A stretch of DNA of 64,000 nt, taken from a bacterium (GTDB lineage: Bacteria > UBA8248). The notes beneath the pieces were generated by a model. It was given only the letters and a program-made list of their open reading frames with translations. It did not search any database and had not been told where the DNA came from. Location: the NCBI GenBank assembly GCA_965203325.1, contig OZ241875.1, positions 2,464,001 to 2,528,000 of the forward strand, in the 5' to 3' direction. Below, piece by piece: positions 31,294 to 35,981 of the stretch; position 1 is the stretch's first letter, and each line of letters begins with the position of its first letter. Made by a program: the position numbers and the translations under genes.

Positions 31294-31434
31294 ACCCCCC
31301 CTACCCCCCCTTGTCAGGGGTCAAAACCGACCGAAGAGGGAGGTTTTGCAAGACGATGTGTTTCTCGTCAATGGCTTATGCAAACGCTCGTTCATCACTC
31401 GCGTTTGACCCCTGACAAGGGGGGTAGGGGGGGT
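31294..31434. repeat. Inverted-repeat element with CCCCCCCTACCCCCCCTTGTCAGGGG arms
   Basis: Arms about 31294-31325 and 31405-31434; second element at 49566-49675; partial arm at about 51611-51632. Confidence 0.75.
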
Positions 31435-31611
31435 GGTTTTATGGGATTTCTCTTTCAAGGGGGTTGCCATTACCTTCTCAGGGACTTTTTCAACAATCCC
31501 TACGAGGCCAAGTGCGATCTGCAGGGCGGACACATGGGTCCGCCCCTACGAAATCATACCCGAACCGATACCCCATCCAGAGACGGAGAACCACCGATAT
31601 GGAGTGCGCCC

Positions 31612-32400
31612 GTGAACGACACGATGGATTTCGATGAGTGCATCTCGCGCCGGGCTGAAGCCATGTACCTGACGACGGACCTGACCGAGGTCAGGCGTCG
31701 GACGATAGACGCTATGAGGCTCTTCCCCGGCGCGCGCGTTCTGGACGTGGGTTCCGGCCCCGGCCTGTTCGCCGATGAGATGGCGCCGATGGTCGGCCCG
31801 ACGGGCTGCGTGCGCGGTGTGGACATCAGCGAGCCGATGATCGCGCTCGCCCGGGCGCGCTGCGACGATAAGCTCTGGGTCGACTTTCAAATCGCCGACG
31901 CCGTATCACTCCCGTTCGAAGATGGCGGTTTCGACGCCTGCGTGAGCGTGCAGGTGCTCGAGTTCGTGGCTGATGTGGATGCGGCCTTGCGCGAGTTTCA
32001 CCGCGTTTTGAAGCCCGGTGGACGGCTCGCGGTCAGCGACGCCGACTGGGGCGCCACGGCGTGGCGCAGTGAGGACGCGGCACTCTGCGAGCGGGTGATG
32101 GATGGATGGACGTCGGGCTTCGCCCACCTGAGGCTTCCGCTCACGCTCAAACGCAGGATCGAGGCGGCGGGCTTCGTCGATGCGTCCGCCCACGCGATTC
32201 CCGTTTTCAATTCCGCCTGCGAACCTGAAGGTTTCAGCTTTCACTTCATCCGTCAGATTCAGGGCGTCGTCCCCGACAGGACGAACCTCACGCAGGAGGA
32301 AGTAGACGCATGGGCGCAAGAATTGCGCGGCCTGAACGAGCGGGGTGCATATTTCTTCTCGCAGACGAGGTATCTGTTCGCGGCCGATAAGCCGCGCTGA
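31612..32400 (+). CDS. Class I SAM methyltransferase (UbiE/ArsM-like)
   Basis: VLDVGSGPG, GVDISEPM, LPFEDGGFD, RVLKPGGRL..D.DW. GTG 31612 after GGAG; the ORF-track N-extension is repeat DNA. Confidence 0.88.
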   Translation: MNDTMDFDECISRRAEAMYLTTDLTEVRRRTIDAMRLFPGARVLDVGSGPGLFADEMAPMVGPTGCVRGVDISEPMIALARARCDDKLWVDFQIADAVSLPFEDGGFDACVSVQVLEFVADVDAALREFHRVLKPGGRLAVSDADWGATAWRSEDAALCERVMDGWTSGFAHLRLPLTLKRRIEAAGFVDASAHAIPVFNSACEPEGFSFHFIRQIQGVVPDRTNLTQEEVDAWAQELRGLNERGAYFFSQTRYLFAADKPR

Positions 32401-32404
32401 AGAA

Positions 32405-33121
32405 TCAACCCTCTTTCGATTTCATCTTCTTGTAGACCACGGGGATGAGGGAGAGCGCCGCGAGTCCCACCAGCGCGATCATGACCTGGGGCGTGAGTAT
32501 CCCCTTGGCGGAGAACTCGCCCCCCGCCTCGAATATGCTGCCGAGCCCGGCACCCACCGAGGCGAAGACGAACGAGCCGGGAATGATCCCGAAGAATGTG
32601 CCGATGACGTAGACGCTCAGGGACACCCCCAGAAAGGCGGGCACGAGGTTCACCACGAAAAAGGGAAAGATCGGAACGAGCCTTAGAACCAGCAGGTAGC
32701 TCAGCGCGTTCTCCTGAAAGCCTTCTTCCATCTTCTGAAGCCAGGGGCCGGCCTTCGCGCGCAGGGGGTCGCCGAGCGAGGTCTTGGCCGCGATGAAGAG
32801 AACCGTCGCCCCCACCGTCGCGCCCACGACGATATAAAGCGCGCCCCAGACCGTCCCGAACAGGAACCCTCCCGTGATGCTCATCACCAGGCCGCCGGGG
32901 AGAGAAAATATCGTCACCGCCGCGTAGGCGAGCATGTAGGAGATGACGGCAAGCGCGCCGTTATCGTGCACCCACCCCTTGAGCAGGCTCTGGTTTTCCC
33001 GCAAGGTCTCGAAAGTGAGGTAGCGGCCCAGCCCCGAGTAGAAGAAAGCGACGAGGACGAGGACGAGGGCAAGCGGAATGACGAAGTTCTTGTAAGAGAG
33101 TTTTTTTTCGGGTTCGCTCAT
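32405..33121 (-). CDS. TVP38/TMEM64 (VTT/DedA superfamily) membrane protein
   Basis: SLPG..MSITGGFLFG, LRLVPIFPFFVVN, GTFFGIIPG. Confidence 0.9.
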   Translation of the reverse strand: MSEPEKKLSYKNFVIPLALVLVLVAFFYSGLGRYLTFETLRENQSLLKGWVHDNGALAVISYMLAYAAVTIFSLPGGLVMSITGGFLFGTVWGALYIVVGATVGATVLFIAAKTSLGDPLRAKAGPWLQKMEEGFQENALSYLLVLRLVPIFPFFVVNLVPAFLGVSLSVYVIGTFFGIIPGSFVFASVGAGLGSIFEAGGEFSAKGILTPQVMIALVGLAALSLIPVVYKKMKSKEG

Positions 33122-33543
33122 TTTCGGATGGTTGCTTTCGTTTTTGGGGTGACGTTGTGTGAGGATGCGGCTGCTCCACATGGCTCGCGGCCCGGCGCGC
33201 TACGCCGAAACCGCGATCAGCTTCTATCACATTTCACGCGCGGGTCAAATCGTCCCGCCGTTTTGCGGGTTGTTGGAGAAGTCCTTGCGGGTCGGGCCGG
33301 TGGGGCGAGATTTTCTCTTTGGCATGTCCCCCCACCGATTCGGTTTCGGGTTTTTACCCTCACCTCATCGACTCCCCCTCAAGGGGGGAGTGAATCTTGC
33401 TCTTTTATTGGTCGCGTCAAATCCTCGTTAATCGGGGTTTTTCCCTTGACGTGGACTTTTTCAATACCCCCTTTCGGGGGAGGGGTGGCGCGATTTGCGC
33501 GATTGCGAGAAAATACCCTCTTATGTCGATTGGGGAAGAGTCG

Positions 33544-34008
33544 ATGAATCCGAGGTTGAAACCGTATCAGACATACGGAATCGCCCTGCTTCGCGTCTCA
33601 TTGGGCGCTTATTACGTTCTGCACGGCTATTACGGCTGGCTGGTGATCGGCGTGGAGCGCCTCGCCGCCCTGAACGTGTCGATGGGCATCCCTCTGCCCA
33701 CCATCAGTGCGTGGGCCGTCGTGCTGGGCCATCTGGTCGGCGGAGCGCTCCTGATCATCGGGCTCTACGCACGCCTGGGCGCTTTGATGAACGTTCCCAT
33801 CATGGCGGGCGCCGCCGCGTACGTGCATTTCGACCAGGGCTTTTTCATGCACGGCATCGTCACGAACCCCCAGACCGGCGCCGCCGTCGCCGGCGGATAC
33901 GAATACTCGCTCTTCCTCCTCCTCGCTACGACCGCCATCCTCTTGATGGGAGGCGGCCCCCTCTCCATCGACGCGCGAATGAGAAGCAGAATGCGTATGG
34001 GGGAGTGA
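33544..34008 (+). CDS. DoxX family membrane protein
   Basis: LLRVSLG....HG, GGALLIIGLYARLGAL, GYEYSL, GGGPLSID. Confidence 0.9.
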   Translation: MNPRLKPYQTYGIALLRVSLGAYYVLHGYYGWLVIGVERLAALNVSMGIPLPTISAWAVVLGHLVGGALLIIGLYARLGALMNVPIMAGAAAYVHFDQGFFMHGIVTNPQTGAAVAGGYEYSLFLLLATTAILLMGGGPLSIDARMRSRMRMGE

Positions 34009-34150: not shown

Positions 34151-34272
34151 GTAGGGGTCAGACATATATGTCTGACTGTGTGTCCGCCCCATGCGGTCGC
34201 CGTGTTTCACCATTCCGTTATCGGTGCAACACAGATATCCAAGGGCGGGCGGACACACGGGTCCGCCCCTAC
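34151..34272. repeat. GTAG REP doublet (REPIN-like)
   Basis: GTAGGGGTCAGACATATATGTCTGAC ... GGGCGGACACACGGGTCCGCCCCTAC; the right arm is nearly identical to about 31524-31549. Confidence 0.7.
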
Positions 34273-34415
34273 GGAACCGCGACCCTCTCGCTTTCCGGGT
34301 CAGATCATCTCCACAGAGCATGTCCGGTCGCCCGTAGCCCTGGGGTTTTCCGCCGGGTCATGCGATAGTGAGCGCGCTGGTTGATTCTGGAAACGATGGC
34401 CGACAGGACACCCCG

Positions 34416-35216
34416 ATGAATTTGCGCAGGTGGAAGGACAGGATGGTGGCGCGTCTGCTCACGCGCTATCCGGGGCTGGTGAAAAGGTGGGCGGGGGGCA
34501 GGGATTTCTCCGCCGAGATGGCCGGCTGGCGCGCGGGGCCCGCGTTCACGCCCTGGACGCCGCCGGTGAAGCCCGTTCGCGAGTGCAAAGTCGCGCTGGT
34601 GACGACGGGCGGGGTGCATCTCAAGACGCAAACTCCCTTCGACATGGAAAACCCCGACGGCGACCCGACGTTCCGCGAGATTCCGGGCGACGCCGCGCGC
34701 GACGAGATGACGATAACGCACGATTATTACGACCACAGGGGGGCGGATGTGGATTTGAACGTCGTCTTCCCGCACGAGCGGCTTAAGGAAATGGCCGAAG
34801 AGGGCGTGATAGGCGGGGTCTCGCCGGTTCATTTGAGCTTCATGGGCCATATCGATGCGGAGCTCGTCGAGCGGCTCGTGGAGGAGACGGCGCCTGCCGC
34901 GGCGCGGCGGCTGCGCGAGGCGGGGGCGGAGGTCGCGCTGCTGGCGCCTGCCTGAGGGCTTTGCAACCGCTCGGTCGGGCTGATTCAGAACGCTGTGGAA
35001 CGGGAGGGGCTGGCCACCGCGTCGGTGAGCATCGTGAAGGAGATAACGGTCGGGCTTTGCCCGCCGCGTGCGGTGTTCGTGCCCTGGCCGCTGGGCCACC
35101 CCTTCGGACGGGCGGGAAATCTTGAACAGCAGCGCGCCGTGCTGTATGATATGATCGGGTTGCTCGAGACGGCCGAGGATCCGGGAACGCTCATCGAGAG
35201 GGACCATCCCTGGTGA
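34416..35216 (+). CDS. Selenoprotein, glycine/sarcosine/betaine/proline reductase selenoprotein B (GrdB/PrdB) family; Sec at TGA 34953-34955; 266 aa
   Basis: ORF-track pieces 34368-34955 and 34995-35216 share one frame. Read-through gives VALLAPA-U-GLCNRSVGLIQNAVEREGLATAS (UxxC). Family motifs KVALVTTGGVH, GDPTFREIP, HDYYD, DLNVVFP.ERL, SFMG and C-terminal PPRAVFV.WPLGHPFG. Confidence 0.88.
34956..34986 (+). promoter_or_regulatory. Candidate bacterial SECIS element
   Basis: GCUC-[GGUC]-GGGC apical stem-loop whose loop starts 17 nt after UGA; E. coli fdhF has a GGUC apical element at nearly the same distance. Confidence 0.6.
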
Positions 35217-35396: not shown

Positions 35397-35981
35397 ATGG
35401 ACGCAGTCGCAACCCCCATCACCCGCCTCGCAGAAGAGCTGGCCGGCATCTATGATAAAGGCGCACGCGGCCGGGGATTCATCCGCGCCGCCGAACCCGC
35501 TCTCAAACGCCTGCTGGGCGAGGATTCTTTCCTTCCTCCCGAGGCGCTCGAGCCCTCCGATGAAGGGTATGCGCGGCACCTGCTGTATCGCGACCCCGAG
35601 GAGCGCTTCGTCGTAGCGGCCATGGTGTGGAAGCCCGGGCAGGGCACCCCGATTCACGATCATGACGGCGCCTGGGGAATGCTCGGCATGGTGGAGGGCG
35701 GCCTGGAAGTCGTTAATTATTTTGCGGATGGGGAAATCGCCGAAGGTGAGGTCGAGTTGCGAAACGATGCGCCCCACAATCCTTCGGCAGGCGGGCAGAA
35801 CTCGGTTTGCGGCTGCGCGGACATCCATACGGTGCGCAATCGGCGTGACGATGTGGCGGTTTCCATTCATGTGTATCCGCGCGATTTGGAAGCGTGCCAT
35901 TTCTTCGAGCCCATCAGCGGTGAAAAAAATCGCTTCTGCGCGCGCCGCGTCTCGATTTCCTACACGGGTGATTCTTCCTGA
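35397..35981 (+). CDS. Cysteine/thiol dioxygenase (CDO type I cupin)
   Basis: YARHLLY, WKPGQGTPIHDH..AWG, DIHTVRN, VSIHVY (3-His site plus S-H-Y triad); AGGAGG RBS. Confidence 0.88.
   Translation: MDAVATPITRLAEELAGIYDKGARGRGFIRAAEPALKRLLGEDSFLPPEALEPSDEGYARHLLYRDPEERFVVAAMVWKPGQGTPIHDHDGAWGMLGMVEGGLEVVNYFADGEIAEGEVELRNDAPHNPSAGGQNSVCGCADIHTVRNRRDDVAVSIHVYPRDLEACHFFEPISGEKNRFCARRVSISYTGDSS

Follow-up and report, generated by a model that had tools for sequence, protein, structure and literature searches.

A probable PrdB-like selenoprotein gene with an in-frame UGA belongs to a family that co-occurs with arsenosugar-type genes

The 64,000-nucleotide stretch of bacterial DNA analyzed here (the window) holds on its forward strand a reading frame that appears to end at a TGA, raising the question whether this codon terminates the gene or encodes selenocysteine (Sec), and what the resulting protein would do. 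Translation table 11 splits positions 34416–35216 into ORFs of 195 and 73 amino acids. Translated with TGA=U, the frame continues past the TGA at 34953–34955 to a final stop at 35214–35216 and yields a protein of 266 amino acids, as an earlier reading of the bare sequence (the sequence-only reading) had claimed. The U-G-L-C placed by that reading at the position of the redox motif was likewise recovered: the predicted Sec180 lies in the context LLAPA-U-GLCNRSVG, where U180-G-L-C183 forms a UxxC motif whose Cys183 (34962–34964) starts a predicted helix comprising residues 181–196. The start methionine is common to homologues and is preceded by an AGGA at 34405–34408. Positions 34416–35216 are one conserved gene, and the apparent stop lies inside it.

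Alignments of homologues bear out the placement of Sec at codon 180. TGA occupies this column in 34/34 loci, a set including the window gene and two paralogues, and in 167/168 related loci with kin and a few duplicates counted. Of the 270 database proteins, 54 carry Cys at the column, the query being included in this count, and 180 end there; Cys is found in full-length homologues, among them the true PrdB P0179, whose Cys aligns to the TGA of the window. The Cys183 column shows a Cys frequency of 1.00 among 164 close-subfamily rows. Furthermore, the TGA of the window gene recurs in 15 of 15 close relatives, as does its final stop, and comparison with them gave 158 nonsynonymous and 202 synonymous codon differences after the TGA (1290 compared) versus 224 and 408 before it (2685 compared), revealing constraint past the TGA. 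One group of close homologues (P0030, P0036, P0040, P0053 and P0122) has Ser at the Sec column, reading S-G-L-C. A promoter scan returned two overlapping weak sites, within the gene end.

The hairpin following the UGA was assessed for the family and for the window separately. The family SECIS has a stem of 8 bp and a loop whose first base is G, at +18/+19, and its covariation is pronounced: 93.4% of cells are paired with 48 compensatory cells, 0/500 shuffles score as high, and slid controls are only 9–56% paired. The GCUC-GGUC-GGGC hairpin reported earlier at 17 nt downstream is indeed present on the forward strand (GCTC-GGTC-GGGC, 34969–34980); this distance applies to its loop, beginning with G at +18, whereas the stem begins 13 nt past the UGA. 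The window hairpin is a weak variant of the family one, having 4 bp and a shifted position, with a C/C mismatch when placed in the family register. When the 48 nt starting at the UGA were folded, it did not appear in the minimum-energy structure (z = +1.2 versus shuffles), so that, taken alone, it would not rise above chance. The family SECIS is therefore well supported by covariation and the window's own copy is weak. The host genome contains all four Sec genes named by the sequence-only reading, selA, selB and selD above cut-off and tRNA-Sec (selC), with selD itself UGA-containing.

Based on the conservation of the TGA, the Cys homologues, the constraint past the TGA, the covarying family SECIS and the sel genes, we infer that the UGA at codon 180 almost certainly encodes Sec, the insertion of which SelB would direct. 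A real stop, whether in a nonsense pseudogene or between two small genes, would agree with the weak window hairpin, with the ~170-amino-acid length of most database homologues, which end at the column (180/270), and with the sole RNA-library contig (~92% identity, possibly DNA), which spans 34400–34783 only and ends ahead of the UGA. It is hardly conceivable, however, given the identical TGA across phyla, the Cys homologues, the constraint past the TGA, the covarying family SECIS and the completeness of the Sec machinery.

To which family does the protein belong? The best-scoring model was PrdB (TIGR04483) with 157.6 bits, which does not reach its cut-off of 300, whereas the GrdB-type models TIGR01917 and TIGR01918 gave 42–48 bits (TIGR01918, 45 bits; cut-off 65). 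PF07355 (GRDB) matched at 31.4 bits, above its cut-off of 22, as anticipated. The initial GrdB/PrdB assignment thus holds for its PrdB-like half and fails for GrdB. Relative to PrdB (TIGR04483; C. difficile PrdB, U151), the window protein has the same length, the UxxC motif and the core residues H68, D83, R87, H102, D113, N115, M143-G144, C183, E195 and R218, but adds basic amphipathic amino-terminal helices, scores 158 versus 300 bits and comes from a genome without PrdA. It is 36% identical over 210 residues to a protein that passes the PrdB cut-off; the subfamily features Y104, H107, H145 and H228 where this true PrdB has G, N, G and S. GrdB, GrdF and GrdH (~435 residues) share with it a homologous carboxy-terminal half and Sec at the same column, whereas the 266-residue window protein lacks their ~200-residue amino-terminal part and falls below all their cut-offs. 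A profile search returned 3667 clusters at 50% identity, more distant family members included. In a FastTree tree of 212 rows, from which four duplicate loci, matches shorter than 170 residues and matches with more than one stop were omitted, the window protein falls into a 164-row clade (support 0.935) of Desulfobacterota, Chloroflexota and members of the host's group, its close relatives being labelled Nitrospinota or Tectomicrobia by their depositors.

The AlphaFold2 model of the window protein is confident (pLDDT 95). PDB sequence searches found no relative, Foldseek with this model gave no match at E<=0.001, and VIA-align returned only generic Rossmann-like/periplasmic-binding matches (best Z 9.5, rmsd 3.3, 138 aligned). 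The model predicts two basic amphipathic helices at the amino terminus (residues 3–17 and 19–27; 34416–34496, forward strand; pLDDT 85–93), which are typical of the subfamily. Residues 1–30 contain nine K/R versus two D/E, with a hydrophobic moment of up to 0.63 and a maximal 19-residue hydropathy of 1.26, and hydropathy analysis found no transmembrane segment in the protein. It is plausible from this composition that the amino-terminal helix may anchor the protein to a membrane. One homologue, P0148, is fused to VTT; a search for longer fused forms found none, which is weak evidence. A separate PrdB-like subfamily of 386–419 residues (Cys or Sec; P0151, P0188, P0209; L184, L185, L188–L200) bears an extra carboxy-terminal domain of ~170 residues, for which a Pfam search gave no convincing match; several of its loci adjoin arsS, Prx, DUF547, DUF3179 or an acr3/arsG operon.

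We then considered the partner subunits. Grd and Prd partners are missing from the window, as had been noted, and the only PF09338 and PF04723 matches of the genome lie ~1.97 Mb away. Unlike GrdB, the window gene is not beside grdA/C/E, the grdC-grdA-grdE-grdB operon being located 1.97 Mb off (L046:7904-12226; G000 C1:522.5-527.2 kb). The GrdB of this operon reads T-U-G-T-G, not UxxC; grdD was not found above cut-off in the host genome, and glycine-cleavage-T-like and dimethylglycine-dehydrogenase-like genes lie near the operon. The host genome encodes three PrdB-like genes, all with the TGA. The two paralogues (U-P-L-C; L044:6937-7700 and L045:8360-9141) group in the tree with the arsS-adjacent L186/L187; TIGR04283 is found 8.7 kb from one of them, and the other is surrounded by amidohydrolase, nitrile-hydratase-like and MFS genes. 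The earlier label of a solo selenoenzyme therefore fits the gene, which has no partners nearby, but not the genome with its grd operon and two TGA paralogues.

A search for PrdA in the host genome did not find it, the best match, at 25.8 bits (cut-off 700), being GrdE. Among close-homologue carriers of other phyla, PF09338 (the pyruvoyl partner) occurs in 2/49 and 0/5, leaving 52/54 without, and it was not found in the closed or near-closed relatives G023, G033 and G034, where the orthologue is present. Within the host's phylum, 47/51 genomes have a PrdB/GrdB-type match and 38/51 have PF09338. The non-Stickland role suggested earlier is supported, and a PrdA/GrdE-type partner is absent genome-wide in most carriers. 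As far as the accessible text of PMC11229817 goes, Prd activity was demonstrated with processed PrdA and Sec-PrdB combined, so canonical proline reduction by the window protein is unlikely.

No neighbour is universal across PrdB-like loci. In the window, a DoxX-family gene (33397–34008, forward strand, true start probably later) lies upstream on the same strand, and a divergent DedA/VTT-domain gene (32405–33181, reverse strand) lies 1.2 kb away, 37–42% identical to the VTT directly upstream of arsS in L186/L187. The VTT link recurs in relatives L205, L206 and L208–L210, and DoxX precedes the PrdB-like gene in L205, L206 and L210. In the host's own family (L205, L206), DoxX and the prdB-like gene are divergent from a YHS-VTT-MerA-like series. 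Of this arrangement, DoxX and the divergent VTT are retained in the window, while for YHS and MerA-like the best matches are found at other sites of the genome. Located 180 nt downstream, a cysteine-dioxygenase-like (CDO-like) cupin (HxH...H; 35397–35981, forward strand; PF05995 38 bits, cut-off 23) corresponds to the O2-dependent thiol dioxygenase recognized earlier, but was not seen in loci outside the host's group. This restriction makes it a weak functional clue, and it was dropped as the main one.

In other lineages, PrdB-like genes adjoin genes of arsenosugar-type clusters. The order arsM-like–arsS–(PHO4)–PrdB-like is found at L137, L172 and L173, and the order PrdB-like–TIGR04169–arsS at L143, L174 and L180, the short L122 and L153 showing TIGR04169 alone; TIGR04283, an arsenosugar-type glycosyltransferase, is a neighbour at L095, L100 and L155, and DUF3047 at L166 and L170. 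Close-subfamily genes adjoin arsS, TIGR04169, TIGR04283 or DUF3047 on four branches, with only 13/164 close-subfamily tree rows having one of these genes in the fetched flank. DUF547 lies directly upstream of the PrdB-like gene in all five arsS-positive Chloroflexota carriers, and other PrdB-like subfamilies also adjoin cluster genes (L184–L188). Compared with the ArsM–ArsS arsenosugar pathway and its NCBIfam companions, the family co-occurs with these genes and in several lineages lies inside the clusters, where TIGR04169 is another predicted redox member. The window protein itself showed no match to the NCBIfam arsenosugar models TIGR04167, TIGR04169, TIGR04282 and TIGR04283. Outside cyanobacteria, the arsenic role of the cluster is itself an annotation.

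The association extends to whole genomes. TIGR04283 exceeded its cut-off in 25/28 close carriers versus 10/33 non-carriers in Desulfobacterota, and in 9/15 carriers versus 1/19 controls in Chloroflexota, where 6/15 carriers lack it; controls were drawn systematically, 33/65 drawn Desulfobacterota and 19/39 drawn Chloroflexota genomes being used. For arsS, the corresponding numbers were 21/28 close carriers versus 50/200 selA-positive non-carriers among 301 Desulfobacterota genomes and 5/15 carriers versus 5/155 among 191 Chloroflexota genomes, 10/15 carriers being without arsS. These counts are not phylogeny-corrected, and the Fisher tests treat kin as independent, so the association is overstated. 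ArsM (NF008823) was not enriched in Chloroflexota carriers (6/15 versus 95/155). Among 74 PrdB-like genes from all subfamilies, four have arsS within 2 kb, with 0.13 expected and 0/43 for a selA control using the 43 listed positions in arsS-positive genomes; the close subfamily contributes none of these four. Of 111 arsS genomes, 58 have no PrdB-like gene, and in family f4 other PrdB-like genes occur in 5/7 genomes and arsS in 0/7. The host genome has arsS, arsM, TIGR04283, a TIGR04282-like gene and DUF3047, and tblastn found neither TIGR04169 nor DUF547 in it. In contrast to the clustered loci, the window gene is unlinked to arsS in its genome, arsS lying 478 kb and TIGR04283 586 kb away, with VTT as the sole cluster-type neighbour.

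The missing textbook partner, together with the co-occurrence of relatives with arsenic-sugar genes, points to a likely part in the reduction of organic arsenic compounds. On this genomic evidence we tentatively favour the window protein being a PrdA-independent selenol reductase for pentavalent organoarsenicals. Such a stand-alone selenol/thiol reductase would serve an arsenosugar-type organoarsenic module: Sec180 would attack an organoarsenic(V) oxide, for instance dimethylarsinate or an oxo-arsenosugar intermediate, releasing the As(III) form; the selenenylsulfide would be resolved by Cys183, and re-reduction of the enzyme from NAD(P)H would fall to a MerA-like flavin disulfide reductase or to thioredoxin. 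The amphipathic helix would keep the enzyme close to the DedA/VTT protein, on the inner face of the membrane. According to the accessible part of PMC13598754, ArsS adenosylates its substrate DMAs(III), and would therefore profit from a reductant of pentavalent methylarsenic. We counted against the arsenic reading that VTT and flavin-reductase pairs are common on their own, as stated in the available text of PMC10127716. Somewhat less probable is the wider proposal that orphan PrdB-like selenoproteins constitute a missing selenium-dependent organoarsenic step, PrdA-independently reducing or cleaving methylated or sugar-linked arsenic; if true, they would couple the selenium and arsenic cycles.

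Among the other explanations, a general thiol/persulfide redox enzyme is unlikely yet has to be reckoned with. Here UxxC would take sulfane sulfur or reduce disulfides or sulfur oxides, and the arsenic cluster would be just one among several redox modules recruiting the enzyme. The commonest neighbour of the family would suit this role: a tandem rhodanese with a signal peptide (3-mercaptopyruvate-sulfurtransferase-like) lies directly upstream in 26–27 loci (L037:4967-5992 and 25 similar), in some with its stop overlapping the start codon. Nearly all of these loci belong to a single Desulfuromonadia clade, and the rhodanese appears to be an exported protein, whereas the PrdB-like protein has no transmembrane segment. 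The CDO-like cupin and DoxX beside the window gene would also fit, as would a cystathionine lyase (L082), a sulfite-reductase-like gene (L086) and thioredoxin (L219–L221) beside other loci, and the abundance of the family in oxic seawater among Trx/Prx-like selenoproteins, as given in the accessible portion of PMC2398784. A housekeeping role, on the other hand, leaves the TIGR04283 distribution in Desulfobacterota (25/28 versus 10/33) unexplained.

Rather improbable is that PrdB-type chemistry was kept, with Sec attacking carbon and cleaving the C–heteroatom bond of an onium substrate, namely arsenobetaine, trimethylarsonio-sugars, or sulfonium or ammonium compounds, whose charge would make the pyruvoyl Schiff base unnecessary. 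The arsenic co-occurrence fits this chemistry equally well, the PrdB core residues are retained, several host paralogues lie among amine-catabolic genes, and in Prd, by the text available from PMC11229817, Sec attacks the alpha-carbon. However, the activity shown in that same text is only for processed PrdA with Sec-PrdB, and no transporter or acyl-transfer partner is conserved beside the gene. Very unlikely is an action in trans with GrdE/GrdA as an alternative Stickland-type protein B, or as a true D-proline reductase subunit: the host's grd operon, PF09338 in most genomes of the phylum and the identity to a true PrdB would allow it, but the operon already has its own GrdB, PrdA is absent, and the lack of PF09338 in nearly all other-phylum carriers and in the closed relatives largely refutes it.

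'Proline reductase PrdB' selenoproteins were among the most abundant in the GOS ocean survey of Zhang and Gladyshev 2008, the accessible part of which (PMC2398784) lists 235 Sec PrdB sequences in 38 samples versus one GrdA and five GrdB, suggesting mostly partnerless genes; the gene type was therefore already known. A PF07355 match and UxxC are common to these and the window protein, compared by family description rather than by sequences; the same text assigns the family no function and mentions neither an orphan status nor the surrounding genes. The available text of two reviews (PMC13188914, PMC9312934) gives only a clostridial function for PrdB, and a literature search covering few subscription papers and no supplements found neither a link between PrdB-like proteins and arsenic nor an orphan clade described. 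The gene is real and its read-through ordinary; new is the functional lead to arsenosugar-type genes, which points to assay substrates and to a candidate enzyme for the reduction on which ArsS depends. Annotation is affected too: thousands of family genes are cut short at the UGA and frequently bear the wrong name, D-proline reductase, so that Stickland metabolism can be implied for organisms that have none.

Further features were observed around the gene. A palindromic REP-like element lies upstream at window positions 34237–34280, with 19 matches of at least 28 nt in the genome. A methyltransferase gene at 31378–32400, 2 kb upstream, has its best NCBIfam matches among ArsM-related selenoprotein models, far below cut-off. 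The segment 36200–41669 is a block encoding an alpha/beta hydrolase, an APC permease–Usp fusion, CoA-transferase A/B and an ECF sigma, and is kept downstream across the host's family.
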